Below are positions 29,492 through 60,440 of a stretch of DNA of 64,000 nucleotides, in pieces. Location of the stretch: assembly GCF_041248615.1 (NCBI RefSeq), contig NZ_CP158425.1; one strand, given 5' to 3'. The DNA comes from Escherichia coli (lineage in GTDB: Bacteria; Pseudomonadota; Gammaproteobacteria; Enterobacterales; Enterobacteriaceae). How positions within the stretch are numbered: the first letter of the stretch is position 1; each line of letters opens with the position of its first letter. The notes under the pieces are model-generated. The model saw only the letters and a list, made by a program, of their open reading frames with translations, was not told the DNA's origin and searched no databases. A program made the position numbers and the translations under genes.

Positions 29492-30742
29492 TTAAGTCCG
29501 ATACAGTTCGGCGAGCTCATCCAGCATGGGGTTACTCTTATATCCCGGTGCGGCCGTAAAAAGGTTTCGGGAAATCGCCAGCCACTCCATGATTTTGTCC
29601 GTCGCCAGCCAACGTCTGCCAAGTCGCTCGGCTGCGATGGGGACTTTATGCAAGCCAGCGAAGGGATCTACAACAAGATCTCCCGGCTCTGTCAAAAACT
29701 CAATCAGAAACGCTGCAAGCCTGGTAGGAGACGTTGCACCGTGCAGCGGAAAACCGAGCTCGCGGGCAATGGAATGGCAAAATCTCGTATCAGCGCAGCT
29801 ATTGCCGTAAAACAAAGTATTCTTGGGGATCGTTCCTTCTGTTTTATTTCCAAAGGAACCGCTTTTAAGCTGGTACGCCCCATCACCATAAAAGGTCGTG
29901 CGATTTTCACCGCCTGCTGCCTGCAATTTTAGATGCTGGTCTGAATGCGGTTGTAGTACACGTAAGTTGTTTGAACGAACCTTACTCGCATCATTGGTAA
30001 ACCACAGCACAGGCTCATACGATGAGCAGAGCTGCACCCGTTGCTTACATGCCCAGTGCGTTGGCGATGGGGGCTTACTGCGATTCACCCACTGAAGCCT
30101 GTCCATGAGCTCAAGCCCCAGCTTGTCACATAATGCCAGTGTCAGACGCTCCAGATACAGAGAACGTGAAGGCCTACCCCTATTAAAGCTATCTTGAGTG
30201 ATATTCAATGCCACACTTGCGCCCGGTACAAGCTGTTTCACGATCGGTTCGAGGATACGCAGAAGCCAGTCAATATAAGCCTGCTCGCCACGCCCCCCTC
30301 CGTGCCCGTAGTCTCTTGAATTTCGAAGGAGGTAAGGTGGCGAGGTCAGGCAAAGATGAATTTGCTCGGTGATATTGCTGAAGAAGGCATAGGCGTTTCC
30401 AAAAACCGATGCCCCAAGAGAAGTTGAGAAACCGACAACACAGAGCTTTTCCCATGACTCATGCAGGTTTGTTTTCGTCTTAGAGGCGTATCTCCAGACG
30501 CCCCGTTTTTCTGGAACGCGTTCGATGACCCCGGCCTGACGGAGAGTCTGCTGAAACCAGCGAACCTTATGTTTGACGCCGCTGGTTCTGGTTTTATCTG
30601 ACCCAAATTCTTTCAGTTCGTGCAATTCGGCATCCGACATGCCAGTTTTACGCTGCACTTCGCGATAAAGCTCGTCGTTGGTCAACGGCGATTCGGAGGC
30701 AGCGTAGATATGCGCAATTAAGTCCGTATTAATCGTACTCAT
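29492..30742 (-). CDS. DNA methyltransferase, beta-class N4/N6 family (SPPY motif), orphan
   Basis: Motif IV LTSPPY lies before motif I VVDPFAGLHKVPIAAERLGRRWLATD, which is the beta-class order. The first ~90 aa look like an N-terminal winged-helix domain. No adjacent endonuclease was recognised. Confidence 0.75.
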   Translation of the reverse strand: MSTINTDLIAHIYAASESPLTNDELYREVQRKTGMSDAELHELKEFGSDKTRTSGVKHKVRWFQQTLRQAGVIERVPEKRGVWRYASKTKTNLHESWEKLCVVGFSTSLGASVFGNAYAFFSNITEQIHLCLTSPPYLLRNSRDYGHGGGRGEQAYIDWLLRILEPIVKQLVPGASVALNITQDSFNRGRPSRSLYLERLTLALCDKLGLELMDRLQWVNRSKPPSPTHWACKQRVQLCSSYEPVLWFTNDASKVRSNNLRVLQPHSDQHLKLQAAGGENRTTFYGDGAYQLKSGSFGNKTEGTIPKNTLFYGNSCADTRFCHSIARELGFPLHGATSPTRLAAFLIEFLTEPGDLVVDPFAGLHKVPIAAERLGRRWLATDKIMEWLAISRNLFTAAPGYKSNPMLDELAELYRT

Positions 30743-30910
30743 CAGCCATCCTAATGGGGATACAGTTATTATATCGGCCTGATGGTTGGAAGTGAGATTA
30801 CTAAATCAGACCGATCTGGTTTGTTGAAGACTTTGCCAAATCATGCAGCACAGCTGGGCTTGCACAGAGCGAGCCGGGCTCCTTTAGCGGAGACACCTTC
30901 GCAAGTTGGA

Positions 30911-31519
30911 TTAATCAGCCTCAAGATTCTGGAACTCAATGAGCTTTTGCTCACACTCCTCCCTGCCCCACGATCCCTGCCAGTCACAGATGTCCCGGTA
31001 CTTACTTTCCAGCTTATCCATCTGTGCGAGATTAGCTGTTGCGAAGTCTGTCCATATGTCATGCCAGCAAGCGTTGTACGTAACGCCAGCTGGTGGACAA
31101 TACTCCATTGCATCAGCATTAATAATTTCAACGCGAAGATCGGTTGCAAACGAGGCTGCAACGAGGTTAATAACATCCTGTTCTTTTTCGATTACCGTGA
31201 CATGGGTTACATCGTCTTTCTGAAGAATGGCGTGGAGCACCATACCAAGACCAAGACCATTAATGAGCACCCGCCCGGTGGCTCGCTCTATAAAATCCTG
31301 GCAGGTTCGGATCTCCATCGGGGTATTGGACATCACCACATCCCAGCCGTTGGACAAGCGGCGATATCTACCGGGCGGGATAAACTCATCTGTATTACCA
31401 GTACACTCGGCACGAAGGGCGAGGGTCAGCGCCTTATCTGTGGTAATTTCGAAAGTGTCCAGTTTCCAAGTTCCGGACTTGCCGTCTTTAACGGGTAAAT
31501 CAGAAAAGCAGCTCTTCAT
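30911..31519 (-). CDS. Class I SAM-dependent methyltransferase fold protein
   Basis: RVLINGLGLGMVLHAIL...VTVIEKE...IINADAMEY matches motif I, the acidic residue after beta-2, and motif III. The start is uncertain (ATG 31519 or TTG 31531). Confidence 0.5.
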   Translation of the reverse strand: MKSCFSDLPVKDGKSGTWKLDTFEITTDKALTLALRAECTGNTDEFIPPGRYRRLSNGWDVVMSNTPMEIRTCQDFIERATGRVLINGLGLGMVLHAILQKDDVTHVTVIEKEQDVINLVAASFATDLRVEIINADAMEYCPPAGVTYNACWHDIWTDFATANLAQMDKLESKYRDICDWQGSWGREECEQKLIEFQNLEAD

Positions 31520-31674
31520 CGAGGCAACCAAAATTCCAGTAGTTTTGTTACGCTGAACCTACCACAAACCCGCTCTTAATGAAGGCATCAGGAGCGATAG
31601 CGATCTTTGAGGCATCGTTTAAAACAGCGGCATCCTGTAACAGACACCCGATATTTTTTTTAATGCCGCAGGTG

Positions 31675-31932
31675 TTAAAGGTAGCGTTGCAAAGTTGCAA
31701 CATCTTCAGGGGCAACCTCCACGCAGCTCCTGACACTGTAGTGATTTTCGCCGTTGTAGTCATAAACCCCACCGTCTTCAAAACTCAGCTGTTCAACCTC
31801 GCCAGCACACTCGGAAATCAGTGCCGTCTGGCAAGCATTTTTCTCACAATCGCTGACGAGTATACGAACATAGCTTTTCTCATGGTCGCCGTTACGGTTC
31901 TGGATCTTTACGATAAAGTGTTTTTCAGACAT
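31675..31932 (-). CDS. Small hypothetical protein
   Basis: GGAGG RBS; 85 aa. Confidence 0.55.
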   Translation of the reverse strand: MSEKHFIVKIQNRNGDHEKSYVRILVSDCEKNACQTALISECAGEVEQLSFEDGGVYDYNGENHYSVRSCVEVAPEDVATLQRYL

Positions 31933-31996
31933 TTGTGCCTCCAGCTCAGGTTGAGGTTAATTTAGCGTTGCCCCGGTTCACCGGGGCAAGAATAAA

Positions 31997-32425
31997 TCAA
32001 CCCTTAATGAAATTGTGCCCCCAGGTGTTAGGCTTAAATGCCTGCTCTTTGATATATGTTTTCATTACCTTGCAGGTTTTTTTCAGGGCTTTGGTATTGG
32101 CATCGGTTACTGGGATAAAATGGCGAGAATGACGGTTTTCCCGGTACTGCTTATCAGCGTTTGGGTCAATTGCTTCGCTTTGCAGGAGCCCTTCGTGCCT
32201 GCCAATTACTATTACGTAGTTCATTTCACCTGAAACACGATCCGTGAGTAATTGAAGGGAAATATCAGCTGCTCGCGTGGCCTGGCTTGCAGATATTTTT
32301 GCATGCAAGAAAGCCCCCTTTCTGAATTTGGCCGGAGTTAGCCCTGTAATATCCTCAACACTAAAATTAAGTGAGGAAAGAATTGAAAATAAGTCGCAGC
32401 TAATGACTTCAGTATTATTAGGCAT
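31997..32425 (-). CDS. Hypothetical protein
   Basis: 142-aa ORF, co-directional. Confidence 0.5.
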   Translation of the reverse strand: MPNNTEVISCDLFSILSSLNFSVEDITGLTPAKFRKGAFLHAKISASQATRAADISLQLLTDRVSGEMNYVIVIGRHEGLLQSEAIDPNADKQYRENRHSRHFIPVTDANTKALKKTCKVMKTYIKEQAFKPNTWGHNFIKG

Positions 32426-32519
32426 TTTACCCGTCCCCGTCCATATTCATGATACGGTAATGATACCAGGTCGATATCATTACCTAATAACTTGGTGAAA
32501 GAAAATCTGTAATTTTTAG

Positions 32520-32897
32520 TTAACTAAAATTAATAGTCTCAATACTGCTCAAGAATTCTTTTTTTACGTCCGGTGTAAAAGGTATACGTTCAATGTATTT
32601 ATAAAGTGTCGCAAATGTTTTGGGTTCAATGTTTCGGGAGATAATGTCATCAATCGGATCTTCGAACATATTGATAAAGATATCGACATGCTGCTCTCCG
32701 CTTTCTGATGCCTTTGAAAGAAGACTGACCACTTCAATGTAGCGATTATCCTGCTCTGCAATGAACAACCAGTGCCCTTCGTTAAAGGCGGGTGCAGCGC
32801 TGTAGCGTTTAACAACAATTTCTGAAAGATTATATCCTGCCTGATTCAGCAGATTATTAAAGTTGAGTTGAGTTGAAATCACGTCTAACGTTTTCAT
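32520..32897 (-). CDS. Hypothetical protein
   Basis: GGAGG RBS. The promoter motif lies at 32945-32957. Confidence 0.55.
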   Translation of the reverse strand: MKTLDVISTQLNFNNLLNQAGYNLSEIVVKRYSAAPAFNEGHWLFIAEQDNRYIEVVSLLSKASESGEQHVDIFINMFEDPIDDIISRNIEPKTFATLYKYIERIPFTPDVKKEFLSSIETINFS

Positions 32898-32944
32898 AAA
32901 ACCTCCTTTTCATCTGTACTTATTATACTGTTACCCAACCCCCA

Positions 32945-32957
32945 GCTAATAACCTCC
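32945..32957 (-). promoter_or_regulatory. Conserved promoter-like motif (GGAGGTTATTAGC)
   Basis: About 48 nt upstream of the ATG at 32897. TTCTGA sits at the -35 position. Confidence 0.45.
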
Positions 32958-33065
32958 CAGCAAATTTTCAGAAAAAAAACACCGCCTTTTATTTAAGATT
33001 GAACACATCCTTTTTAAATACCAACAATGATTATGAAACCACAATGTAAGTGAAGCGCCATTATG

Positions 33066-33080
33066 GAAAAGTAACTTTTG
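33066..33080. promoter_or_regulatory. Palindromic operator-like site, copy 8
   Basis: GAAAAGTAACTTTTG. Confidence 0.5.
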
Positions 33081-33304
33081 TGCAGCTCATAAATTTTATT
33101 TATTAGTTACGTTCCTTTGTCTTGTGGTCGAAGTTCATCAGGCGAGGCCTAAGAAGAATATGTGTGGTTTCAGCCAATGCGGTGATCGGGCATTATAATT
33201 TGGTCGGGCTATTATACGTGGGTAAAGGTAGTGGTAGGGAGAGGATCAGGTTAAATTGCATTTTCCCGGTTGCCTTCCCTGGCCTACCGGTTTCAGGTCA
33301 GACG

Positions 33305-34486
33305 CTAAGACCAGCGGTAATACTTAAAGTAGTCCTCATTTACAGCCAAAAACTCCCTTAAACCGTTCATTAATCCCTTTTCAAACGCTGTAACGATAAA
33401 CCGGTATCCGTCCAGTGTTTCAATGTAGTAGATCCCGCCCGGTGTTATTCCAACATGCAACACCTCGGCTGTCATCATAAACTGGCCTTCCGGAAAATCA
33501 TGCGACAGGTATATAAAACCCGTCGTGGCCGGTGCGGGTGTGGCATTCACTAAGACACCGTTAAACTGCTGCCCGTGCCTCGCCGGTACAAGCTCACTTC
33601 CCCTGGTTGACTTATCGAGCAGCCCCTTAACATCTTTTTGCTCTTTAGATGAGGTATAGCCCCGCACATCACTCCCATCACCTGGGCGAGAGCCGGTGCC
33701 GACATGTGCAAGACGACGGTAAGCGCTGCGCATATTGATGTGGCAGGATGCCCCGGCTCTACCCTGAAGCCTTACGCCAAAATCTTCGCAAAGTAATAAA
33801 ATCTGACGTAGCTGGTGTTCATACACGGACGCAGAAAGTGAAAGGTTGAAACTGGAAAAGGTCAGTTCTAAAACCTTTTCCCGTTTGTCATTGAAATGTG
33901 CTTCCAGCCTGATGATTGGCTTTTCCGACATTGCAAAAGCTTTGTCCGTTGCTCTGTACCGGCATTCATCTCCGAAACATTCTTCAACAACGCTGGCTAT
34001 AACCGTGTCGTGATCGCCATCTTCCGGAGCTGGCACAAAGATTTCAAATTGTGCCGGTGTCTCCGGCTCCAGCAGAACGGGATATAAACGCGGAGAATTA
34101 AGCAATGCGCATTCAGAATTAATGAGCTTAACCCAGGCGCTTTTGTCGTCCGGATCCTTAAGCTGCTGTCCAAGGTTATCGCAAAAGTCTACTATCTGAC
34201 GGGTATGCTCATCCGTGACTGCACAGATCAGGTTAAGACCATGCGTGGCCATACTCAATTCCCGGGTTCGGGACTGGGAATTGATCGACCAGGGGTTAAG
34301 TGAAAGCGAAATAGGGCTTATGGAAGGGACGACCGTCTCATTCTGCAAATCTGTAAGCTGGCAGTTCGCAGTAGGCTTCGGGGAAAGGGTACTAAATATG
34401 TAACTTGCCTGTTGTTTAGTACTGGCCTGGATATAAAACATCGCGTCCATGCTTGTATCCCGGGATGAAATTGAAAATAGCTTCAT
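33305..34486 (-). CDS. Hypothetical 393-aa protein directly downstream of the HigB-like toxin
   Basis: The start is 8 nt after the toxin stop, with a TAAGG RBS. No helix-turn-helix or other motif recognised. Confidence 0.55.
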   Translation of the reverse strand: MKLFSISSRDTSMDAMFYIQASTKQQASYIFSTLSPKPTANCQLTDLQNETVVPSISPISLSLNPWSINSQSRTRELSMATHGLNLICAVTDEHTRQIVDFCDNLGQQLKDPDDKSAWVKLINSECALLNSPRLYPVLLEPETPAQFEIFVPAPEDGDHDTVIASVVEECFGDECRYRATDKAFAMSEKPIIRLEAHFNDKREKVLELTFSSFNLSLSASVYEHQLRQILLLCEDFGVRLQGRAGASCHINMRSAYRRLAHVGTGSRPGDGSDVRGYTSSKEQKDVKGLLDKSTRGSELVPARHGQQFNGVLVNATPAPATTGFIYLSHDFPEGQFMMTAEVLHVGITPGGIYYIETLDGYRFIVTAFEKGLMNGLREFLAVNEDYFKYYRWS

Positions 34487-34494
34487 TTTTAACC

Positions 34495-34791
34495 TTAATG
34501 GATGAGCGATTTATAGTCATGTGCTGACAAATGGACATTATGTGCGCCATCATTCCATTCAAAGAATAATCGATACTTAGAGTTTACTCGAATGGAGGAA
34601 TAACGGTTTGACGTCATTCTTAAGCGTTCATAACGCAAGCTGTTGGATAATAACTCCCGCTCACTCTGGACATTATCCAGCGTTTCGAGTCGACACAGAA
34701 TCGCGTTAATAATTTCAGAAGGAATACCTGCCGTTGTTTTTCCATTACGGAAGAACTTTTCAAGCCGTCTGTCTTTAAATGAATGGATCAT
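34495..34791 (-). CDS. HigB-like toxin (RelE/ParE superfamily, plasmid-maintenance killer type)
   Basis: MIHSFKDRRLEKFFRNGKTTAGIP...RLETLD...SIRVNSKYRLFFEWNDGAHNVHLSAHDY follows the MIKSFKHKGLKLLFEKG..GVP...RL..ID...SI.V...WRI.F....GDAY.L...DYH pattern of HigB killer proteins. GGAGG RBS. Confidence 0.65.
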   Translation of the reverse strand: MIHSFKDRRLEKFFRNGKTTAGIPSEIINAILCRLETLDNVQSERELLSNSLRYERLRMTSNRYSSIRVNSKYRLFFEWNDGAHNVHLSAHDYKSLIH

Positions 34792-34840
34792 AGTTCCTCC
34801 GTAATAATTGACCTTAAAATTAAATTAAAAGGGCTTTGAA

Positions 34841-35311
34841 TTAATGAATCCCTAAAATGCGGGCGGCGACTGCCAGCTGCTTATCACTTAACTGACGCTG
34901 GTGGGTTAAAGAAGACTTAAGGCTTTCCAGAAAATTATTACTGCTGGATTGCTGGGTGATTGCATCAACCATTTTTTGATGAGATCTGCACCATGCATTG
35001 AACGCAGAGTTGTGGGCGTTTTCAGTCCTCAAACGCTCGTTTTGCAAGGATGCTGACACTTTGCGGGCAGCTTGAGCATTAATGCGGTACAGCGCATTCA
35101 GCGTGTAAGAAGTGCGGGTCGTTTCGAGGCTGTAACCCGTGGCTTTACAAGCCATACAGCGACTTCTATAAAAATGCTTACGCTCTCCCCGACCATTGCA
35201 TTTATCGCAAAGAATACGAAAAGTATATTCCGCAGTACCTTTTACAGAATCAACACAGCGGATTTTTGCGCTGGAGATTTCAATTCCACTGCGATCATAA
35301 TATTTGGTCAT
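34841..35311 (-). CDS. Zinc-ribbon protein (CxxCxGxG type)
   Basis: CDKCNGRG...CMACKATG motif. GGAGG RBS. The promoter motif lies at 35365-35378. Confidence 0.55.
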   Translation of the reverse strand: MTKYYDRSGIEISSAKIRCVDSVKGTAEYTFRILCDKCNGRGERKHFYRSRCMACKATGYSLETTRTSYTLNALYRINAQAARKVSASLQNERLRTENAHNSAFNAWCRSHQKMVDAITQQSSSNNFLESLKSSLTHQRQLSDKQLAVAARILGIH

Positions 35312-35364
35312 AATGTGATTCCTCCGGTTAGTTCTGGAGTAATCATGACAGAATGAATCTACTG

Positions 35365-35378
35365 GCTAATAACCTGAG
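35365..35378 (-). promoter_or_regulatory. Conserved promoter-like motif (CTCAGGTTATTAGC)
   Basis: About 54 nt upstream of the ATG at 35311. Confidence 0.45.
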
Positions 35379-35745
35379 AGTAAATATTTTAAAAAAACAT
35401 TGAGAGAGGGTCTGCAAATTTATACACGAAGGATTCAAATATAATTTTGTTTAAAAAATTAAGAGCATTCTGAAGTAAAAGTGCATCAAAAAGCATTCAT
35501 GGATAAATCATGTACTGGTGCCAGCCATTTAAACGCGGGCATTGTTCCGGAGTGATTAAACGGTTTAGCATCATAGATTAAAACCAAAAGGAAGGCGTCC
35601 TTCCCGTCTCGGGAATATTACTTTCCCGTTTGCAATTTAAGAGCCACTTAATGAGAAAGTAATAATTAAGTCATGCTCAACTCTACATATTACATTGAGG
35701 ATGGCGTAACAGGGTACGGCATACTACCGCACCCTTCTGAAGAGC

Positions 35746-38136
35746 TTATGTTTGAGGGAATTCTATAGCAAATGTGGCCGTGCCAGATTGACCACTTACA
35801 GCGGGAGTAACGGGATACGTGCGCTCTTCACCATTACCAAGATCCAGTGACAGCGATTTAGTTTCACCAGGCTGGACCGTAACTCCGGCAACCGTAACGC
35901 CGAACTGGGCATTTTTCTGAACAGTCAGGGTTCCGTTTAACTGTCCGGTAATGATAGAACCGTCCTGACGCCGCAACACACTGGTTCGGATGATGGCCAG
36001 CGGCGTGTTGTCCGTTGCTTTCAGTGCTACGGCTGTGGCCAGCGTCTTGAGATTATCCAGCATAATCAGATTCGCAGGCTGGTAGGTAAAATTAAGCGTT
36101 TTAGTGGTCCGGTTACCTGATTCGTCAATAGCCAGTGCCTCCAGATGATACATCTGTCCCGATTCGTCAGTGTTGGGGAAGATTCTGGGGTATTCCGGAA
36201 TAAAGACATCCTTGGATAACGGCGTGAATGCCAGGGTGACCTTTTCAGAGTTAGGTCCACCAGCGAGCTGAAGCGATGTCAGGGAAGCATCCCCAGAGGC
36301 ATCAGTAACGCTTATGCGAAGGTTCTCAAGCCCTTTAACCAGTTTTCCTTCTGCGTCTGCGCCATTAAAACTGAACGCGATAACCGGAAGCGTTGAGTCA
36401 ATTTTCAGCGGTGCATTAAGCGTTTTGGTTCCGGTGTTTCCAACAAGATCCGTGGCAGAGACGCTAACCACCGTATAATCCCCGTCCGGTAGACCAGCGT
36501 ATGAGAAGGTGGCGTTTTTGGTTTTATAATCGCTTTCACTGACGGTCACAGGCTTCAGCGTGAAAGGTTCCCCCCGGGCATTTTTAAGGGTGGCTTCGAA
36601 AACTTTGGTATCCCAGTAGCTGATGTTCCAGGCGTTGACGCGATCATTATCGGTGGCCGTCATAGTGATTGTCTTGGAGGCCTTGTTTACCTGAGCGACA
36701 TTAACCACCGGTGGGTTGTTATCCCAGATAACCGTAAAATTACCAGCAAGCGCATCGAATATGCTGTCACCATCTTTTCCCGAGTAAAGGTGCAGATACT
36801 CAAATCCTTTGTCACTGGTGTAGTTGAAGTTAACCGTCATCTCGCATGAACTTTGTCCGATAGGTATAGTGCAGAACCAGGCTGCATTTTTTACCGTTCT
36901 GAACTTTTGCACGTATGGTCGGGGTTCAGCGGTTACCTTTATGCGGCTAATGGTGGCGGTTTTAACGCTGATTGAGGCCTGAGTTAACCACTCACTGGTA
37001 TCACTCCGGTACATCTCTTTAGCCACTATCTTCGGGGCTATTTCCATCGCCGGGGCTGGAGTGAAGTTGAGGGAGTTATGATGAATTCGTCTTACTCCTC
37101 CTGCCAGAGTCTGGAATTCATGATAAGTATCCCCCACATTGGGATATATGTATTTGAAAGTATAAATATTATAAGTGCTATCGGACGTCTGGAAATTCGA
37201 GTCCGCCCAGCCATATTTGGAACCGTTAACAGCAGTAAAGTCACTTTTTTTCCTTAATACCCGTACGGAAATAGGGTTCTGGAAGACGGTCATGCCAGAC
37301 TGATAAGTGACCCATGATCCGGTAGTGGCGTCCTGCACCTGGATGATATCGTCAGGCTTAACCCGATCAATTACGCTTCGGCGGCTTAGTTCGATCCTGT
37401 TTCCCGCTTTGTCATAAAGGTAGATCCCCACTTTATATTCAGAGCGGTTTTCCGGTGCCAGGGCATTGCTGCTTGCGTCGGCGACTTGAACGGTTACGCT
37501 ACCTTCCACTGTATTAATTTCCGCTGGCTTTTTACGCTCCACTCCAGCGGCATCGGTTATGAAATATTCAGCATTAGCAAGCCCGGAACCTTTATCACTC
37601 AGTCCATTAAAGACCAGTGCCTGGACGCTGGCGTACTGCATACCGGCTGGTACTGAAGTGAAGATCGCTTCGCTGCCAAAGTTCCACCCGTTTCTCGTAT
37701 AACTTATGGTACCCGTTGCCGGAGGCGTTCGGTCAATTGCAAGCGGGTAATCCTGCCGGGAGACCTCCTTCCCTTGCAAGTCGGTAATCACCTCTCTGAG
37801 GGTGAAGCTATCTTCTCCCATCGCTGGTACGGTCAGAGTCTTGCCGTAATAATCAAAGCCTGTCGAAGATGTGGTACGGTCATCTACGGTAACCAGGCTG
37901 CTTTTCGTGCTCCAGATGAGGCTCCCGTCACTTTTCAGCAGACTGAGCGTAATATAACGGTCCAGACCGGAAATAACGGCAACGTCAAAGCTCGTTACCG
38001 GATTAATCCATACGGATGCAGGCGATACGGTCTTTTTAACGTTCAGGGTATCTTTAAAGCTGAATTCTGCGATTTCAGCGGAAGCTCCTGCGCTGAAACC
38101 TGCAAATGCAATAAGCAGGGCTAGTTTGATTTTCAT
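35746..38136 (-). CDS. Secreted large beta-rich (Ig-like repeat?) protein, paralog A
   Basis: AGGAGA RBS before the ATG at 38136. Signal peptide MKIKLALLIAFAGFSAGASA. Shares GLDRY, YYGK.L.PA.GE, GLENLRI, GGP and EYPRIFPN blocks with 43689-46109 and 50384-52840. Confidence 0.7.
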   Translation of the reverse strand: MKIKLALLIAFAGFSAGASAEIAEFSFKDTLNVKKTVSPASVWINPVTSFDVAVISGLDRYITLSLLKSDGSLIWSTKSSLVTVDDRTTSSTGFDYYGKTLTVPAMGEDSFTLREVITDLQGKEVSRQDYPLAIDRTPPATGTISYTRNGWNFGSEAIFTSVPAGMQYASVQALVFNGLSDKGSGLANAEYFITDAAGVERKKPAEINTVEGSVTVQVADASSNALAPENRSEYKVGIYLYDKAGNRIELSRRSVIDRVKPDDIIQVQDATTGSWVTYQSGMTVFQNPISVRVLRKKSDFTAVNGSKYGWADSNFQTSDSTYNIYTFKYIYPNVGDTYHEFQTLAGGVRRIHHNSLNFTPAPAMEIAPKIVAKEMYRSDTSEWLTQASISVKTATISRIKVTAEPRPYVQKFRTVKNAAWFCTIPIGQSSCEMTVNFNYTSDKGFEYLHLYSGKDGDSIFDALAGNFTVIWDNNPPVVNVAQVNKASKTITMTATDNDRVNAWNISYWDTKVFEATLKNARGEPFTLKPVTVSESDYKTKNATFSYAGLPDGDYTVVSVSATDLVGNTGTKTLNAPLKIDSTLPVIAFSFNGADAEGKLVKGLENLRISVTDASGDASLTSLQLAGGPNSEKVTLAFTPLSKDVFIPEYPRIFPNTDESGQMYHLEALAIDESGNRTTKTLNFTYQPANLIMLDNLKTLATAVALKATDNTPLAIIRTSVLRRQDGSIITGQLNGTLTVQKNAQFGVTVAGVTVQPGETKSLSLDLGNGEERTYPVTPAVSGQSGTATFAIEFPQT

Positions 38137-38791: not shown

Positions 38792-38823
38792 TTTAAATAT
38801 CTCTCTTTAATTGTTGTTACCAG

Positions 38824-49490: not shown

Positions 49491-49495
49491 AAAAG

Positions 49496-52840: not shown

Positions 52841-52994
52841 ATGATGCTCCGGGAATAGGTTATAGCCTTATTCTACGGATTCAGCCTACAAGGTCCGGTC
52901 GGATAAAGTGATAATTTGCCTGTTAAAAGAGACATCAAGTGAGAAAGCAACCAACGTACAGAATGCAAAATGGCGGCAGTGCATCTGGATGACG

Positions 52995-53009
52995 CAAAAG
53001 TAACTTTTT
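52995..53009. promoter_or_regulatory. Palindromic operator-like site, copy 11 (upstream of paralog C)
   Basis: CAAAAGTAACTTTTT. Confidence 0.5.
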
Positions 53010-53059
53010 GTATCCACTTTTTTGGATTTTAGCCTTCAAAATGAGTATTCAACCAATCA

Positions 53060-53074
53060 TAAAAGTAACTTTTG
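53060..53074. promoter_or_regulatory. Palindromic operator-like site, copy 12 (upstream of paralog C)
   Basis: TAAAAGTAACTTTTG followed by ATAG. Confidence 0.5.
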
Positions 53075-53212
53075 ATAGACGCTGCTCCTTTATGTTTGCC
53101 AATTGTGCTGATATGTTTGTAAATTCAAGGAAGCGAGATTTTAAAAGCATCTGTTGAGTCAAATTTATGTAAAATAACAGGGAAACCATCACTTCTAGGT
53201 TGAGGAAACCCA

Positions 53213-53839
53213 ATGTTATACATGCTCTTATGCTGTTTTCTGATGCTCAACAGTACATTCGTTATGTTCAGAGCAATGTCTGCAATAAGTAAAGGATCCG
53301 CTAAAGAAAACCGGTCTGAAATATCGCTGATAGTCCTAGCAACACTTGGAATCGCATCACCATTCATTGTCGCAATGATTACTATTAATGAAAGTATGAC
53401 ATCTAAAACAGTAACAGATTTTTCTTTGGGTGCTCAGTGGTACGGAATGGTTTCAGCGGTAGCGCTAATGGGGTTATATGCTCGACGCGTTTGGAAAGAG
53501 AAGAAGTCCTTATTTACTGGCGCTTTCCTGGCCTCTTCCTTAATGGCCTTTATTTTTACTGACAGCCTTGTTTTCGTATCCCAGAAGGACACCGGCGTTC
53601 TGGCTACTTTCGTACTCGATAAAAACGCTGGAGATATTGATTGTAGTCGCCCGGCTATGATTGTCCATTACAGTAAAGGTGTTCCAACGGACTGGCGTTG
53701 CCCAACCAGTATCATGTTGATGGCGTATTCTTCATATCCTTTTTTACCCTGGCCTGAGTATAGCCATGGTACCAGCCAGTCTCTTACGGTTGTTATTGAT
53801 ACATTTATGGAAAACGCTGTTAATCTCAGCCAAAAATAA
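53213..53839 (+). CDS. Polytopic membrane protein
   Basis: GAGGAA RBS. At least five hydrophobic segments. Confidence 0.55.
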   Translation: MLYMLLCCFLMLNSTFVMFRAMSAISKGSAKENRSEISLIVLATLGIASPFIVAMITINESMTSKTVTDFSLGAQWYGMVSAVALMGLYARRVWKEKKSLFTGAFLASSLMAFIFTDSLVFVSQKDTGVLATFVLDKNAGDIDCSRPAMIVHYSKGVPTDWRCPTSIMLMAYSSYPFLPWPEYSHGTSQSLTVVIDTFMENAVNLSQK

Positions 53840-53844
53840 AAAAT

Positions 53845-53866
53845 AAACCTCTCTAGTGAGAGGTTT
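53845..53866. terminator. Bidirectional rho-independent terminator
   Basis: AAACCTCTC-TAGT-GAGAGGTTT, a 9-bp stem between convergent genes. A-run before it and T-run after it. Confidence 0.65.
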
Positions 53867-53896
53867 TATAAACCTGAGCCACCAATCTAATTAACT

Positions 53897-54178
53897 CTAT
53901 ATTTTTGTTTTAGCTTTTTTAAAGATAGACTTACCGAATAAAACAGCAATTATAGAGCAAAGGCCTGGCGTTAGGACAAAAGCTAATAATGCACTGCCAA
54001 AACTTGTCATTTCAGGCACCAGGAACCAGCTGATAGGCCACGTCAGGGCTGGTAAATTTAGCGGATCATAAAGCGCATGTAGAGCGCTTAACACACAGTA
54101 AAGTGCTAAAAAGCAAACTAGATAAACAACGATCCACATTTTAATTTGCTCAGCAATTTCAAATTTTGGACTGCCCAT
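53897..54178 (-). CDS. Small membrane protein
   Basis: 93 aa with three hydrophobic helices. Overlaps the upstream gene by 20 nt. Confidence 0.5.
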   Translation of the reverse strand: MGSPKFEIAEQIKMWIVVYLVCFLALYCVLSALHALYDPLNLPALTWPISWFLVPEMTSFGSALLAFVLTPGLCSIIAVLFGKSIFKKAKTKI

Positions 54179-54620
54179 GCTTTACCTCAGTGGCTGAATA
54201 TTGATGGTTAATATCTTTAATCACCCGTAAGCACTTAGTGCATACCTTAGTTCGATTTGTCTGCTTGTCCAGAGTGTATTTAACTTCAAGTTGACCTCCA
54301 GCATTAAGCAAAGTGAGCATCTCATCTTCTAACACGCTTCGGTAAATGGTCTTGGCCGAGAGTGTGCCCGGTAAAGAGTACTCAACATAATTGTTTGAAA
54401 CTCTTACCGATTTAGGGATTTTACCACTGAGCTGGGTTTCATTCGTTGAAGGCATTACAGTTACTTTAATCACAGTTGCCGGTGACCAGAAATCCTGATA
54501 ACGCACTTTATGAATTTTATCAGCTCTAAGGCCTAACCACACATTTCCGGCGATAAGAACAATAAGCAATCCATAAACTGATCGTCGAATGTTACGCCTT
54601 TTAATCACAATGTCCCCCAT
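54159..54620 (-). CDS. Membrane-anchored hypothetical protein
   Basis: 153 aa with an N-terminal TM segment YGLLIVLIAGNVWLGL. Exact start uncertain. Confidence 0.5.
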   Translation of the reverse strand: MGDIVIKRRNIRRSVYGLLIVLIAGNVWLGLRADKIHKVRYQDFWSPATVIKVTVMPSTNETQLSGKIPKSVRVSNNYVEYSLPGTLSAKTIYRSVLEDEMLTLLNAGGQLEVKYTLDKQTNRTKVCTKCLRVIKDINHQYSATEVKHGQSKI

Positions 54621-54668
54621 CCCTCAAATATCATTCTAAATAACTGCACCAGGATATCATGAGCGTAA

Positions 54669-54845
54669 TTAATAGAATTCTTCATAACCGGGGTTTTCAG
54701 TTGAGTTTGCGGACTCTTTACTTTGCGGTTTCTCACCCTCTAGTTGAGTATCCCTGACAGGCTTGGATTTACCCATGCTCCTCTGAAAGGTATCCATAAC
54801 AAACTCAATATCTTCTTCTGGCAGGCTGGTGGGTTGGTTGCTCAT
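54669..54845 (-). CDS. Small hypothetical protein (58 aa, below the track cutoff)
   Basis: ATGA overlap with the stop of the methyltransferase gene (54842-54845). Reads MSNQPTSLPEEDIEFVMDTF...NPGYEEFY*. Confidence 0.35.
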   Translation of the reverse strand: MSNQPTSLPEEDIEFVMDTFQRSMGKSKPVRDTQLEGEKPQSKESANSTENPGYEEFY

Positions 54846-55967
54846 AGGACTTCCTCTTGTTGAATACGTTCGGCGTACAGGATGCGAACCGAAACGGTCG
54901 TGTTTTCAAACTCGTTCTCAAAAACGTCCATCCATTCCGTCCGGAATTCTTCCCCCAAAAGGTTATCGAGCCCCTGAAGAGATAATGGAAGAACGGCTGC
55001 TAGAGATCCCCCGGCTGCGAGATGAGATGCAGCTGCCTGGAGATGCCGCCTGGCCCGGTTATCGGCAAAAGGTGGGTTCATCACGACATAATCAAACTTC
55101 TTCTGTTGATTAGACTTAGACCATGTGAGGAAGTCAGCTTCTGTCGTATCGTATCCCTTAGCCCGGGAGATAAGGCAATTCAAAGTATCAAGCTCGATGC
55201 CAGTAACGATCACACCGGCAGGGAATGATTTAAGCAAATCCGCATGGCCAATATTAGGCTCCAGGAGGGTATCCCCTTCCCCTGCACCAAGCAGGGAAGA
55301 TACATATTCGCTGATTCGGCAAGATGAAGGGTAAAACTGATGCGATACAATATCAGGCATCTCCCCTATCTGGCCGATGTAACGAATAACCTCACACGGA
55401 TCATAGGAAAATGTCACATCGTATTTTGTTACTGTTGCCCCTAAGAACCGAAGGGTGTCAGCGGCAACACTCGAAGATTTGCGTTCGGCGAGAGACCCTA
55501 AAGATGTCCAGCAACTCCATTTATTGTCCCCGTCATTTTTAAACATCAGTTCAGAAAGCTGCATCCGGGTATCAAAGTCGATGCACTGCTTAAGTACAGG
55601 GAATGCCTCCAAAGATTTCTTGCTATGAGCCATACGGTCGGCAGGTAATGCCAGCGGTACGATAGCTGATAAAATATTGTTAAGCCGCTCGGCGATATCA
55701 GGGTGGACGTCAATATGCATTGATCCATTTTTGTAAACCCTGAAACGAATACTGTTGCCATCGATGCAGATCCATTTTCTGAACCCCTCATGTTCGACCA
55801 ACGCCTCAACCAATGATTTGGTGTTATGGATCGCCTTCACCTGTTCGCCACGGAAGAATGCGCATATAACGCGGAGCTCGCTCAGCGGTGAAATGCCAGA
55901 CTCTTTAAAATCCTGAACCGCCCCGGGAATCCTGGAGACTAAACTTCCTGAGAAAGAGGTAAACAGG

Positions 55968-56294
55968 ATGACTAAAAATACTCGTTTTTCCCCCGAAGTC
56001 CGTCAACGGGCAGTCCGTATGGTTCTGGAAAGTCAGGATGAATATGACTCACAGTGGGCGGCAATTTGTTCCATTGCCCCAAAGATTGGCTGTACGCCGG
56101 AGACTCTGCGTGTCTGGGTTCGCCAGCATGAGCGGGATACCGGGGGCGGTGATGGTGGGCTCACCAGCGCTGAACGTCAGCGTCTGAAAGAGCTGGAACG
56201 TGAAAATCGTGAACTGCGCCGCAGTAACGATATCCTTCGCCAGGCTTCCGCTTATTTTGCGAAGGCGGAGTTCGACCGCCTCTGGAAAAAATGA
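55968..56294 (+). CDS. IS3-family transposase OrfA
   Basis: 108 aa; differs from copy 1 at a few residues ([18 protein letters not shown]). Confidence 0.9.
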
Positions 56295-57181
56295 TGCCAC
56301 TGCTGGATAAGCTGCGTGAGCAGTACGGGGTCGGACCGGTATGCAGCGAACTGCATATTGCCCCGTCAACGTATTACCATTGTCAGCAACAGCGACATCA
56401 TCCGGATAAACGCAGTGCCCGTGCGCAGCACGATGACTGGCTGAAGAGAGAGATACAGCGCGTATACGATGAAAATCATCAGGTGTACGGTGTGCGTAAA
56501 GTCTGGCGTCAGTTGTTACGGGAAGGAATCAGGGTGGCCAGATGTACAGTGGCGCGCCTCATGGCGGTTATGGGACTTGCCGGTGTTCTCCGGGGTAAAA
56601 AGGTCCGTACGACCATCAGCCGGAAAGCCGTTGCCGCAGGCGACCGCGTAAACCGTCAGTTCGTGGCAGAACGACCTGACCAGCTGTGGGTGGCTGATTT
56701 TACTTACGTCAGCACATGGCGGGGCTTCGTCTATGTGGCGTTCATCATTGATGTGTTTGCCGGATACATCGTGGGGTGGCGGGTCTCATCGTCCATGGAA
56801 ACGACATTCGTGCTGGATGCACTGGAGCAGGCGTTATGGGCCCGTCGACCGTCCGGCACGGTCCATCACAGTGATAAAGGTTCTCAGTATGTATCGCTGG
56901 CCTACACACAGCGGCTTAAGGAAGCCGGATTACTGGCATCAACAGGAAGTACAGGCGACTCGTATGACAACGCGATGGCGGAGAGCATCAATGGTCTTTA
57001 CAAAGCGGAGGTAATACACCGTAAGAGCTGGAAAAACCGTGCAGAAGTGGAACTGGCCACACTCACGTGGGTGGACTGGTATAACAATCGACGATTGCTG
57101 GAAAGGCTGGGCCATACTCCTCCGGCAGAAGCAGAAAAAGCTTATTATGCTTCCATCGGAAACGATGATCTGGCAGCCTGA
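56291..57181 (+). CDS. IS3-family transposase OrfB
   Basis: 296 aa, near-identical to copy 1 OrfB. Confidence 0.9.
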
Positions 57182-57900
57182 GTTCACAGATAAAACACTC
57201 TCCAGGAAACCCGGGGCGGTTCAATCCACCCTTAATTTCTGCCAGGGGTATTTAGACGGCTCGCAAACTCCGGTAGTGATCATGCGGGTGGAGAACCCAA
57301 AAGCTTTGTTTGTCTTGTGACTGCGGCTCAGAGACTGGAAGACGTCGTAAACCCTTTCTTTAATAAATTGATTGCGGTCATTAAGCAAAGCAACGACTGT
57401 GCCCACTACAGCGTCAGCTGTGAAATCAGGGATCACCTGAGGCGGCATAATATAACGGTCGGCCGTAAACTGCTTATCCCATTCGTTACGTTTGGCATCC
57501 GACATGATAGGCAAAACATCAGTGAGTGCCATAACGCGTTTCCAGTATTCTGATCTCAGAGCGTTTTCTGCGAACAAGGCATCCGCTTCTGAGATGCTGT
57601 GGTTGTAGCCTGAGAGATAAGAATAAAGTTTCTGGTGATTGTGGGTTTTGAACTGGACAGCCATGAGTTTCAACAAGCAGAGTTCATCATTATAGGACTC
57701 AACAAGATCCGCGATAATGCCGAGCTCTTTGCGCATATCTGGAAGAAATGTTTCAGGAGAGCTAACCACCAGGCTATGAGAGGTTGTTAAAGCCAGTACG
57801 CTGTGACCTGCATTATCGGGTTTAGCTTCAGAATCAAGAGATGACATTTTACCGGTCCTTTAGAAAAAACTTTTACCAGGATAGCAACGTCGCTCAGTAA

Positions 57901-57914
57901 CCTAATAGGTTCAG
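57901..57914 (-). promoter_or_regulatory. Conserved promoter-like motif, variant (CTGAACCTATTAGG)
   Basis: About 54 nt upstream of the ATG at 57847. Confidence 0.4.
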
Positions 57915-57978
57915 TGACACGAAAAAGTTTTTTATGTCTCTGAATAAAACTTAAAGATGTCAACTCATAGAAAGAAGC

Positions 57979-58005
57979 AAAAAAAAAGCCCCGCATAAAC
58001 GGGGC
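57979..58005 (-). terminator. Rho-independent terminator of the ParB-like paralog 2 gene
   Basis: GCCCC (57988-57992) pairs with GGGGC (58001-58005). Nine U follow on the minus strand (A-run 57979-57987). Confidence 0.65.
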
Positions 58006-58094
58006 AAGAACGATACATGGAGGTTTAAAAAAGGCGGGCAAAAAGCCTGAATCCTTAATGACTCTGACAAAACCAGCACTTTGCCAAAAGTAAA

Positions 58095-59258
58095 TTATTC
58101 TGCGTCCGGCTGTGGGTCAGTATCCTGATCGGTCTCTTCCCCTGCCTTCTTAGCATTTTTTTTACGTGGGTATTTTGGCTTCTCACCATTAAGTTTTGCC
58201 TGACGATTCTCCGCACGGCGAAGCTGCTTGTTCTCTGATTCTGTGATCTCTTTTGAAAGATTTCTCAACATCTCCAGAGTACTGCGGTTCAACGTAATGT
58301 TGATTTCTTCGTCAGCACTTGAATCTGTCAGCTCCGGCAATTCAATATCCCCCAGTTTCTGTAATAAGCTGGTGGTGATGAGTTTGACGCCTTCTACGGC
58401 TTTTGTGGCAATAACCGGCGGAATCCGTGCTGGCTTGAAGTCTGAAGGTCTGACTCGTACCTGACCATGTTGGGTTTTTTTCACCGTGATGCCATTCGCA
58501 TCGGCCTGCTCAAGTTCTGCGATCATCTTCTTGATACGTGAAATTGCTTCTGTTTCGCCGAGCTCATCGATCAGTGAAAGCACGTTAACATACGAAATAG
58601 CGTCAGCATGAATCCATTTCTTGATAACAACAGAACAGGTTGTCAGGCGGATAAGAGAACTGATGGTCGTCGGGCTTTTATTTTCACGTTGAGCAATTCG
58701 TTCGAGTGACCAGCCAGCAAGAGAATGTAGGCGACGATAGGACTCGCCAAGCGCAACAGGAGAAAGCGCAAGACCACGGTTACCATCAATGGTCGCGAGC
58801 TCACAGCCAATTTCATCTTCTTTAATCTCAACGCAAAGGATTGTGATGTCATGATCTTCATCACATGCCATCATTGCGGCTTTTAAACGGCAGTGCCCCT
58901 GGCGAACAAAAGGTACCCCATCAATGACACGTACTCGGATAGGGTCTACATAGTCACCTCGAATGTAGGCATTCTTGATGTTGTAGATGTGTTCTTCAAC
59001 CTCAGGGAGCTTATAGTAATCGTCACCCATTCCCATTTCGCGGGAGTTGAAGCCTGGCGTGACCTGAATTACTGAAGGGTGGATAGCCCATGCTTTCTGG
59101 TCACTTACTTCAGTACAAAGTTCAGGGTTTGCATCACGGAACTGTTTAAGCCCAGTGACGTAACGGCCTGTGCCAGTAACTACTGAAAAGGCAACATGGG
59201 CCGTTTTAAAGACCTTGTCATTAGCTTGCTGTGTAGGTTCTGTCAGTAAAACACTCAT
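58095..59258 (-). CDS. ParB N-terminal domain (ParB/KorB-like) protein, paralog 2
   Basis: PGFNSREMGMGDDYY and FVRQGHCRLKAAMMA are collinear with paralog 1 (EGFNTRTAGMGELYY, VLRQGACRIRSIAIA). ACGGAG RBS. Confidence 0.6.
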   Translation of the reverse strand: MSVLLTEPTQQANDKVFKTAHVAFSVVTGTGRYVTGLKQFRDANPELCTEVSDQKAWAIHPSVIQVTPGFNSREMGMGDDYYKLPEVEEHIYNIKNAYIRGDYVDPIRVRVIDGVPFVRQGHCRLKAAMMACDEDHDITILCVEIKEDEIGCELATIDGNRGLALSPVALGESYRRLHSLAGWSLERIAQRENKSPTTISSLIRLTTCSVVIKKWIHADAISYVNVLSLIDELGETEAISRIKKMIAELEQADANGITVKKTQHGQVRVRPSDFKPARIPPVIATKAVEGVKLITTSLLQKLGDIELPELTDSSADEEINITLNRSTLEMLRNLSKEITESENKQLRRAENRQAKLNGEKPKYPRKKNAKKAGEETDQDTDPQPDAE

Positions 59259-59534
59259 AGGGGCTCCGTTACATTTTTCTGCTTACTTTCTGCGTAGCGG
59301 GGATACTACCGAAAAAAAAATTCATAATTTTTCGCAAAAAAGGTACTTTTTGAGCCTATTCTGATTTTTTACAAAAAAAGGTGGCTCCCCATTACTTGTG
59401 ATGGCATAAAAATCGCTTCATAAACAAATACATAAATCCAAAACATAAAGTTCAGGTATAAGTGAGGAAAAATCTTATAAATCCGAAATGCTGAAAGTCA
59501 AAACTGTGCGTCTTAAACAACTTTTTTTTGCTCC

Positions 59535-59547
59535 CTAAGTTATTAGT
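59535..59547 (+). promoter_or_regulatory. Conserved promoter-like motif, variant (CTAAGTTATTAGT), rightward copy
   Basis: About 80 nt upstream of the dam-like ATG. Confidence 0.35.
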
Positions 59548-59627
59548 TAAAGCCCGTGGTTAGGTACGATACCAGCACCTAAATTTCTCTCTCAGGTATA
59601 GACACTTTGACTCGACATCTCAGACAC

Positions 59628-60440
59628 ATGCCGATAATCAAATGGGCTGGTGGAAAAACGAAACTGATGCCTTTCATCAGCCATCACTACCCACACGATC
59701 ATAGTTGCCGGTGGGTAGAACCCTTTATAGGCGGTGGTGCCGTTTTTCTGAACATGTTTGCACAAAATGCATTGCTTGCAGATAGCAATCCAGACTTGAT
59801 CAACCTATACAGGACTATTCAAAGACAGAAAACTAACTTTATAAATCAGGTCCAAAACTTGGCGGATAAAACCTTTGTCGAAAAGGACTACTATGAGATG
59901 AGGGACCGTTTCAACAAAACCTGTATTTCTGGTCAATCGCTTCAAAGAGCGGCTTTGTTTTACTCCCTGAATCGCCTGGGCTATAACGGTATGTGCCGCT
60001 ATAACTCAGAAAGAATCTATTCAGTGCCGTGGGGGAAACATACAGAACTGAAGCTTGACCTCAATAAAATAGACTACCTTTCATTTCGTCTTTCAGGTAT
60101 TGAACTGATCACCGCTGGTTTTGAGGAGACTCTGGCCGCAACCGGTGAAGGAGATCAGATTTACTGTGATCCGCCATATGACAAAACAAGCAAAACTAGT
60201 TTTGTCAGTTACGATGGTAAACCGTTCAGCCAAAGCGACCACGTGCTGTTAGCAAATATGCTCGTTGACGCTCACAGAAAAGGCGCTGCTGTTGCGATAT
60301 CAAATAGCCTGACATCATTCACTTTGGGCCTCTATGAAGAGCGTGGATTCGTCATACACAGACTCAGCGCTTACCGATCCGTAGGAAGTAAGCCGAATAC
60401 ACGGAAAACGGAAACAGAAATACTGGCCGTGCTGAAATAG
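59628..60440 (+). CDS. dam: Dam-family (D12 class) DNA adenine methyltransferase
   Basis: IKWAGGKTKL...VEPFIGGGAVFLN...YNGMCRYN...IYCDPPY is collinear with E. coli Dam (LKWAGGK...VEPFVGAGSVFLN...YNGLCRYN...VYCDPPY). The track ORF starts at TTG 59607; the ATG is at 59628. Confidence 0.85.
   Translation: MPIIKWAGGKTKLMPFISHHYPHDHSCRWVEPFIGGGAVFLNMFAQNALLADSNPDLINLYRTIQRQKTNFINQVQNLADKTFVEKDYYEMRDRFNKTCISGQSLQRAALFYSLNRLGYNGMCRYNSERIYSVPWGKHTELKLDLNKIDYLSFRLSGIELITAGFEETLAATGEGDQIYCDPPYDKTSKTSFVSYDGKPFSQSDHVLLANMLVDAHRKGAAVAISNSLTSFTLGLYEERGFVIHRLSAYRSVGSKPNTRKTETEILAVLK

Follow-up and report, generated by a model that had tools for sequence, protein, structure and literature searches.

The window analysed here, a stretch of 64,000 nucleotides of Escherichia coli (NZ_CP158425.1), is the final 64 kb of the IncHI2 MOB-H plasmid p14408_M1. 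It carries, as judged from its sequence, four DNA methyltransferase genes of three structural classes (M1, M3, M4, M5), one of which is inactivated by an insertion sequence (IS), as well as one methyltransferase look-alike with an S-adenosylmethionine (SAM)-type fold (M2). With moderate confidence we favour the reading that this part of the plasmid is a conserved IncHI2 backbone in which four orphan DNA methyltransferases, accompanied by the unrelated SAM-fold gene, would provide a conditional protection of plasmid DNA around conjugative transfer. The assignment of the window is based on positions 45000-64000, which are 100% identical to positions 219073-238073 of NZ_LT599829.1 (megablast), the 238-kb plasmid of E. 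coli NRZ14408 with an IncHI2A replicon, a MOBH relaxase and a mating-pair formation system of type MPF_F. The coding sequence coordinates of this RefSeq record agree with those that an earlier, purely sequence-based inspection of the window (the original prediction) had given for all five genes, and its description of the element as conjugative is confirmed as well.

Predicted methyltransferases of the window

A six-frame scan of the window for the motif [DNS]PP[YFWH] in open reading frames (ORFs) of at least 100 amino acids returned M1, M3, M4 and M5 only (Table 1). The original prediction had counted five methyltransferase genes; for these four the assignment is supported by motif I, motif IV and matches in both Pfam and the PDB, and their individual descriptions (an SPPY-type beta-class enzyme, two NPPF enzymes of which the longer has an extra N-terminal domain and is inactivated by IS629, and a Dam-like DPPY enzyme) all hold.

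M1 matches the Pfam families N6_N4_Mtase (PF01555, 9e-22) and Mrr_N (PF14338). Its SPPY tetrapeptide is located at residue 134 and motif I (DPFAG) lies close to the C-terminus, which is the order of the beta-class, and the catalytic domain matches the N4-cytosine enzyme M.PvuII (PDB 1boo) with E = 2.3e-39. The predicted product is N4-methylcytosine (m4C). M1 differs from M.PvuII by the added N-terminal winged helix, and neither a PvuII-like nuclease nor a C-protein is found near the gene, nor an m4C motif in hosts that carry it.

M3 scores above the Pfam cut-offs for both N6_Mtase and MTS, and its best PDB match is M.TaqI (1.2e-6, with the alignment limited to the catalytic domain). With 253 amino acids it is too short for a separate target-recognition domain. 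M3 is paralogous to the C-terminal 215 amino acids of M4 (27% identity, 1e-12), and the module shared by the two is approximately 30% identical to a "class I SAM-dependent methyltransferase" whose gene neighbours ssb, parB and psiB in the leading regions of IncF plasmids.

M4 is interrupted by an IS629/IS1203-type element, for which matching plasmids list a transposase of the IS3 or IS1203 family, with inverted ends of 25 nt that are 92% complementary and with a 4-bp duplication, ATCC, at 55910-55913 and 57224-57227. Excision of the element together with one ATCC copy restores an ORF of 563 amino acids, the frame being restored only if these 4 bp are removed as well, and the product matches, in all but one residue, that of the intact gene on the plasmid pSSE-ATCC-43845 (pSSE). 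Restored M4 consists of a DUF4942 domain (Pfam, 2.6e-22) followed by the M3-like module with NPPF at residue 486, and it ends about 75 amino acids past this motif, which leaves no space for a C-terminal target-recognition domain. Its DUF4942 part shares 27% identity (6e-18) with a DUF4942 protein that stands alone and is encoded near nikA/oriT in pESBL. No relative of DUF4942 was found when the PDB was searched with a profile, and its invariant residues include two acidic ones and no lysine, hence no PD-(D/E)XK signature; the idea that DUF4942 might be a nuclease domain is therefore unsupported. M4 was also compared with the fused nuclease-methyltransferases of Type IIG, in which an N-terminal nuclease domain and a C-terminal target-recognition domain flank a gamma-class methyltransferase; for the second of these there is no space in M4, and for the first no PD-(D/E)XK-like invariant set was seen. 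A second IS629-type copy is present elsewhere in the window, its 1310 bp aligning to the element in M4 at a score of 1268/1310; the 378-bp ORF next to it appears to be a cut-down form of a 492-bp DUF3085 gene found at this place in pSSE.

M5 covers 252 of the 253 positions of the Pfam D12 profile (PF02086, 1e-48) and aligns over its full length to E. coli Dam (2e-39), sharing with it the segments KWAGGK, YNG.CRYN, VP.G and DPPY, those for DNA contact included. Its orthologue on the IncHI2 plasmid pMS7884A is 99% identical to the REBASE entry M.Sen2050ORF235P, which is listed as a putative GATC enzyme (PMC6981164 supplement), and GATC is accordingly the specificity predicted for M5 from sequence. 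In contrast to E. coli Dam and DpnM, M5 is plasmid-encoded and redundant with host Dam, and its orthologue in the IncHI1 plasmid R27 is under transfer-linked control by HtdA. GATC sites themselves are clustered at two positions of the window, nine of them upstream of repHI2, over 21-bp-spaced iterons and a promoter-proximal inverted repeat, and six, in the form of AGATCA repeats, just ahead of a RepB-family gene that begins past the window end. Against a background of 1.05 sites per 300 bp, the Poisson probability of at least seven sites in 300 bp is about 1e-4.

The remaining gene, M2, had been described as a small methyltransferase, an assignment that is not confirmed. It contains the GxGxG SAM-binding loop and lacks motif IV, its family matches in Pfam and NCBIfam are all sub-threshold with polyamine aminopropyltransferase on top, and its AlphaFold2 model (mean predicted local distance difference test score, pLDDT, 94.1) has spermidine synthases as top Foldseek matches (E 4e-6, template modelling score 0.4-0.5). 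Homologues about 50% identical occur in Aeromonas and in metagenomes, the sources of some of them giving the name spermidine synthase. M2 may thus be a spermidine-synthase-like protein with a SAM-fold or decarboxy-SAM-fold, as its model suggests. Since it is not a demonstrated methyltransferase, the earlier count of five is one too high.

Search for restriction partners

About 45 neighbouring ORFs were compared with Pfam, PADLOC and NCBIfam, a kind of scan which undetectable nucleases could escape, and no restriction nuclease family was found beside any of the methyltransferases. The families that were recovered are RelE/HigB, DnaJ-type zinc fingers, ParB-HTH, DUF6012, DUF5417, NERD (nuclease-related domain), a weak HNH and a DndC-like protein. 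The lone HNH ORF, which had been pointed out before, is real though weak; it lies 6.6 kb from M1 and adjoins no methyltransferase. The NERD protein, 25 kb off the nearest methyltransferase, is no candidate for a restriction partner.

Two ORFs adjacent to methyltransferase genes are suitable in size and position and were considered as cryptic nucleases. The acidic ORF of 254 amino acids upstream of M3, which was rejected, has no match in Pfam, PADLOC, NCBIfam or the PDB, and an exhaustive HMMER search gave 241 relatives, all of them unannotated. R27 contains two paralogues of it (61% and 33% identity) and no close M3, which excludes an M3-dependent nuclease. In CP061234 the ORF is intact next to a frameshifted M3, a frameshift that is possibly a sequencing error. 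A cluster look-up that placed M3 and this ORF in one "90% cluster" was taken as an artefact, as BLASTP finds no similarity between them. The basic ORF of 284 amino acids that converges on M5 had to be considered as a cryptic DpnII-like nuclease; its model, which is of moderate confidence, is a double winged helix of Rep-like type and matches no nuclease fold.

Natural IS insertions bear on the same question. M4 is interrupted in the present plasmid and its neighbouring genes are unchanged, and in pSSE IS903B removes the last 23 codons of M5 and leaves the 284-amino acid ORF intact. Because these knockouts are tolerated with the flanking genes unchanged, and because no nuclease family or fold was found, the genes do not show the pairing of Type II restriction-modification (R-M) systems. 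Frameshifts of M1 in pSSE and of M3 in CP061234 are single-base deletions in a G or T run, with the sequence otherwise unchanged, that may be sequencing errors, and they were given no weight as knockouts. Sequence comparison thus indicates that none of the genes belongs to an R-M system and that all four methyltransferases are solitary (orphan). This agrees with the original prediction, which had recognised no restriction endonuclease partner; the opposite possibility it had raised, a cryptic cognate endonuclease among the neighbours, was borne out neither by the family scans nor by the one structural model nor by the IS knockouts.

Distribution and selection

Positions 29000-45000 of the window are covered to at least 80% in 942 plasmids of Escherichia, Salmonella, Enterobacter, Klebsiella and Citrobacter, and because this stretch is shared by so many plasmids, the genes are part of the IncHI2 backbone and not cargo. 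Each gene is found at an identity of at least 95% in about 1000-1100 plasmid records. The M1 family extends further: its 2278 plasmid records comprise, among others, large plasmids from Klebsiella, Vibrio, Providencia and Pseudomonas, in which the identity is 45-52%.

The comparison with R27 separates the genes into two groups. M1, M2 and M3 are absent from R27, and a block consisting of the 284-amino acid ORF, Dam, the ParB-like gene, the DUF4942-methyltransferase and a 58-amino acid ORF is kept at 60-75% identity. For M4 and M5 the proportions of nonsynonymous (pN) and synonymous (pS) differences between R27 and IncHI2 are 0.18-0.19 and 0.73-0.84, respectively, the synonymous sites being saturated, and both proteins are held by purifying selection between IncHI1 and IncHI2. 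The "cytosine methylase" R0154 of R27 is no orthologue of any of the five genes; it is a separate, orphan gene of Dcm-type (R27 141140-142567) that adjoins thermonuclease and phospholipase-D family genes. As R27 has this enzyme of its own, the methylase set of IncHI1 differs from that of IncHI2 apart from M4 and M5.

Methylomes and expression

Published methylomes allow us to ask what the intact genes do in growing cells. Derivatives of Enterobacter hormaechei MS7884 with and without the 330-kb IncHI2 plasmid pMS7884A show the same PacBio motifs, namely GATC, one Type I pair and CAGCNAC, and the sole extra motif was observed in the derivative without the IncHI2 plasmid (Roberts et al., PMC6981164, supplementary note 5, tables 6-7). 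Carriage of pMS7884A therefore adds no N6-methyladenine (m6A) or m4C motif at 37 °C (PMC6981164). All five genes are intact on this plasmid, with identical residues at 407/416 positions for M1, 185/202 for M2, 252/253 for M3, 560/563 for M4 and 267/270 for M5, i.e., at 92-99.6% identity to the genes of the window. Similarly, the six m6A motifs of Salmonella Senftenberg ATCC 43845, which carries pSSE with an identical M3 and an intact M4, are all assigned to chromosomal genes (PMC5347186, Table 1). During ordinary growth M1, M3 and M4 thus leave no detectable site-specific m4C or m6A, and M5 is masked by host Dam; the new modified motifs that a methylome of carriers had been proposed to reveal were not seen under ordinary growth in MS7884 with pMS7884A. 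As no motif is added at 37 °C, an anti-restriction role must be conditional, i.e., coupled to conjugation or to low temperature, or else the role is a different one.

Transfer of IncHI plasmids is favoured at 25 °C (PMC7366339), and RNA sequencing of R27 provides expression data for the retained block. The Dam orthologue R0041 is weakly expressed, with 80 normalised reads at 25 °C and 144 at 37 °C, and it is increased 7.8-fold at 25 °C in a transfer-derepressed htdA mutant (PMC7366339). In the htdA mutant the neighbour R0040 is increased 18.6-fold and the ParB-like R0042 3.4-fold; R0042 is abundant and was reported as induced in all conjugation-promoting conditions (PMC7366339). R0154, the separate gene of Dcm-type, is raised 4.7-fold at 25 °C relative to 37 °C (PMC7366339). 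A transfer-coupled expression is thus plausible for some of the genes and was not observed for all.

Possible roles of the orphan methyltransferases

According to the reading we favour, M1, M3 and M4 would be silent or nearly so during vegetative growth and would act, if at all, under transfer conditions or transiently around conjugation, so that plasmid DNA which is pre-methylated or rapidly methylated might escape the restriction enzymes of the recipient. M5 would supply GATC methylation, which is redundant in Dam-positive enterobacteria and might be of advantage where the host is poor in Dam, where enzymes of DpnII/MboI type are met, or at the GATC-rich replication control regions of the plasmid. 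The original prediction had connected the genes with anti-restriction self-protection of incoming DNA. A constitutive, site-specific protective methylation is not supported, as no new motifs were found save possibly Dam-masked GATC; a conditional, conjugation-coupled role is possible and is partly backed by the expression of R27.

A precedent is M.EcoGIX, an enzyme of an IncI1 plasmid that lacks a partner, stays silent in cultured cells although it is transcribed, and shields the strand that enters (Fomenkov et al., 2020, PMC7736820). M1, M3 and M4 resemble M.EcoGIX and M.BceJIV, small single-strand-specific plasmid enzymes proposed to work on incoming DNA, in being plasmid-borne, partnerless and methylome-silent though intact, which is the best functional analogy. 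M.EcoGIX itself is a beta-class DPPY enzyme of 227 amino acids (pESBL 54782-55465). A homology of M3 and M4 to it, which its small size had suggested, was rejected, the BLASTP alignments covering the neighbourhood of motif IV only (E 0.004 and 0.98), and since they are not homologous, M.EcoGIX is an analogy and not a family to which they belong. Moreover, orphan methyltransferases are among the most enriched families of leading regions (Samuel et al., 2024, PMC11541004), and the plasmid pKAZ3 encodes five of them, of which one cytosine methylase protects against restriction (Dimitriu et al., 2024, PMC11602122). The number of the genes, called high in the original prediction, is so only in relative terms (PMC11602122). 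Like pKAZ3, the present plasmid is a large conjugative resistance plasmid with several partnerless methyltransferases; its genes differ in that they are dispersed across 31 kb and both strands, and in that they are located to the relaxase side of oriT and outside any defined leading region.

Several observations weigh against a protective role. The published methylomes show nothing new, and no activity of M1, M3 or M4 was found in the literature. M3 and M4 are not homologues of M.EcoGIX, their best NCBIfam match is PrmC, far below the cut-off, and they could have a substrate other than DNA. The genes are located 25-60 kb from oriT on the relaxase side, so that an early entry is conjecture, and their orientation is mixed, with M1, M2 and M4 pointing towards oriT and M3 and M5 pointing away from it. 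The natural loss of M4 and M5 implies that neither is essential to the survival of the plasmid. The M4 orthologue R0043 is not transfer-induced: its change in the derepressed plasmid is 1.5-fold, and its level at 25 °C is below that at 37 °C (PMC7366339). Finally, restriction enzymes are hard to recognise from sequence, and the one neighbour that was modelled gave a model of moderate confidence only.

A second explanation, rather unlikely in our view yet a serious rival, concerns M5 and holds that it serves epigenetic or replication control. At any level of host Dam it would keep methylated the GATC sites in the two IncHI2 replicons, and possibly those in transfer promoters, and would thereby tune initiation or sequestration, as happens in other Dam-dependent replicons. 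The GATC clusters coincide exactly with both replicon control regions, which suggests a Dam-sensitive replication control, and M5 is located between the replicons next to the Rep-like winged-helix ORF and ParB-like genes. The block of 284-amino acid ORF, Dam, ParB-like gene and DUF4942-methyltransferase is kept beside the R27 replicon, where the orthologues R0037-R0042 are co-regulated by HtdA (PMC7366339). However, host Dam methylates more than 98% of the GATC sites in the usual hosts (PMC6981164 supplement), the IS903B-truncated M5 resides in a stably maintained plasmid, and the searched literature contained no experiment tying IncHI replication to Dam. Such a role would furthermore leave M1, M3 and M4 unexplained.

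It is improbable, though somewhat in line with the silent methylomes, that only M1 and M5 act on DNA and that M3 and M4, as well as M2, modify protein, RNA or a small molecule. For M3 the top NCBIfam matches are to protein glutamine methyltransferases of the PrmC/HemK type and to rRNA methyltransferases, each of them far sub-cut-off, Pfam MTS is a general domain of small methyltransferases, neither M3 nor M4 has space for a target-recognition domain, hosts in which both are intact show no m6A motif of theirs, and the model of M2 has an aminopropyltransferase-like fold. These features have to be set against the best solved relative of M3, which is the DNA enzyme M.TaqI, the similarity including the FxxTP segment upstream of motif I, against its score above the Pfam N6_Mtase cut-off, and against the homologues that occur among DNA-handling genes (ssb, psiB, parB, antirestriction) in IncF leading regions.

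That at least one of the genes is part of a cryptic R-M system, with a nuclease among the unannotated neighbours or in a Type IIG-like DUF4942 fusion, is very unlikely. Most neighbours are without a recognisable family, homologues of restriction enzymes commonly escape detection, no relative of DUF4942 has been solved, and the 284-amino acid ORF, which is basic and of low GC content, converges tightly on Dam, a pairing kept in R27. On the other hand, this ORF has a winged-helix model and stays intact where M5 is truncated, the 254-amino acid ORF persists in R27 without M3, and M4 is disrupted here with all neighbours intact. DUF4942 lacks a PD-(D/E)XK signature, M4 lacks a C-terminal target-recognition domain, and the stand-alone DUF4942 gene close to oriT in pESBL has no methyltransferase module fused to it. 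It is hardly credible, too, that the genes are decaying passengers without current function, as might be read from their silence in published methylomes and from IS insertions or single-base frameshifts in M1, M3, M4 and M5 of individual plasmids, given intact copies at 95% identity or more in about 1000 plasmids of six or more genera, M4 and M5 kept full-length at 70% identity with saturated synonymous sites and a pN/pS of about 0.2-0.26, and two examined frameshifts that are both single-base homopolymer deletions and maybe sequencing errors.

Layout of the window and neighbouring features

The Tra1 relaxase operon (mobI, mobH, traD) ends within the first 4 kb of the window, and oriT should be located upstream of mobI, about 6.5 kb ahead of the window start; a second replicon of the RepB family and the start of Tra2 follow directly past the window end. 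The relaxase and coupling-protein operon is closed by the NERD gene, which is kept in R27. In the adjoining array (Table 1), 46 of the 50 annotated genes other than IS lie on the minus strand, i.e., towards the relaxase operon and oriT. Nearly all of them are small and match no family, the exceptions including hok, DUF957, DUF6012, a ParB-HTH protein and RelE/HigB. Comparison of 20 further ORFs of the array with Pfam, in search of known anti-defence families, gave ParB-HTH, DUF5417 and NERD only.

The polarity of this array is typical of a leading region, yet it is sited on the relaxase side of oriT, and the literature examined contained no statement on the transfer polarity of a MOB-H oriT. 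One may speculate, although we consider it improbable, that the 36-kb array (approximately 4.5-40.3 kb, with hok, a ParB-like gene, M2, M1 and the DndC-like gene) is the true leading or establishment region of MOB-H IncHI plasmids, entered first via the relaxase operon, and that M1, M3 and M4 are culture-silent methyltransferases of the establishment phase, functional equivalents of M.EcoGIX drawn from unrelated classes. Gene orientation and a few hallmark families are the observations which point in this direction.

Among the other genes of the window, the three ParB-HTH-like paralogues share 26-32% identity with each other, and the one directly upstream of M4 is the orthologue of R27 R0042 (75% identity). 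Three genes for proteins with immunoglobulin (Ig)-like domains flank the repHI2 region; proteins of this class are reported to be needed for IncHI conjugation (PMC6764697). The DndC-like protein matches PADLOC DndC (4e-38), TIGR03183 (6e-34, sub-cut-off) and Pfam PAPS_reduct with its N-terminal 300 residues, and its C-terminal 400 amino acids are without an assigned function. No dndA, dndB, dndD or dndE gene is found near it. The gene is 75% identical in R27 with a low pN and is shortened to an ORF of 470 amino acids in pMS7884A. It could represent a further DNA-modification or anti-defence function in the array that is co-directional with M1 and M2.

Table 1. Positions of the methyltransferase genes and of other features in the 64,000-nucleotide window (aa, amino acids).
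Feature	Position	Strand	Length	Description
M1	29492-30742	-	416 aa	Mrr_N-type winged helix (N-terminal) and M.PvuII-like beta-class domain, SPPY (predicted)
M2	30911-31519	-	202 aa	Class I SAM fold; lies directly upstream of M1, same strand
M3	41474-42235	+	253 aa	Gamma-class M.TaqI-like module of N6-adenine type (predicted), NPPF at residue 172
M4, interrupted gene	54842-57847	-		Includes both fragments and the IS
M4, 3' fragment	54842-55913	-		NPPF methyltransferase module
IS629/IS1203-type element (IS3 family)	55914-57223	+	1310 bp	Splits M4
M4, 5' fragment	57224-57847	-		Most of the DUF4942 domain
M5	59628-60440	+	270 aa	Alpha-class Dam homologue, DPPY at residue 181
Acidic ORF	40629-41393	+	254 aa	80 bp upstream of M3 on the same strand
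Basic low-GC ORF	60449-61303	-	284 aa	Convergent with M5, 8-bp gap
Small HNH-motif ORF	22282-22848	-		Pfam HNH 1.3e-4; weak PtuB-like PADLOC matches only
ParB-HTH-like gene	58095-59258	-	387 aa	Pfam HTH_ParB and TIGR00180; directly upstream of M4, divergent from M5
ParB-HTH-like paralogue	9162-10346	-		Within the array
ParB-HTH-like paralogue	62469-63524	-		
repHI2	48188-49276			
GATC cluster	49348-49654			Nine sites, upstream of repHI2
GATC cluster	63683-63846			Six sites, ahead of the RepB-family gene
NERD gene	3503-4234	+		Pfam 1.1e-21
Co-directional array	4521-40299			Mostly minus strand
hok	14169-14288			Within the array
RelE/HigB gene	34495-34791			Within the array
DndC-like gene	23924-26308	-	794 aa	
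Ig-like-domain gene	35746-38163	-	~800 aa	
Ig-like-domain gene	43689-46109	+	~800 aa	
Ig-like-domain gene	50384-52840	-	~800 aa	
Second IS629-type copy	18125-19434		1310 bp	
ORF by second IS copy	19395-19772		378 bp	Apparently a cut-down DUF3085 gene

Significance

The set described here is an ordinary case of a known kind and involves no new principle, as orphan methylases on large plasmids are well documented and the genes are annotated in about 1000 records. IncHI2 plasmids are a major vehicle for mcr-1 and mcr-9 as well as for carbapenemase and ESBL (extended-spectrum beta-lactamase) genes, and they pass between Escherichia, Salmonella, Enterobacter, Klebsiella and Citrobacter. According to a survey of 2026, known anti-defence genes form no peak in MOB-H plasmids, and the IncHI1 group that contains R27 is without a complete anti-defence system (PMC13478746). 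If the array were indeed the leading region, this would explain why surveys that use the other side of oriT find neither. How MOB-H plasmids cope without known anti-defence genes may in part be answered by conserved partnerless methyltransferases, for which they are an obvious candidate.

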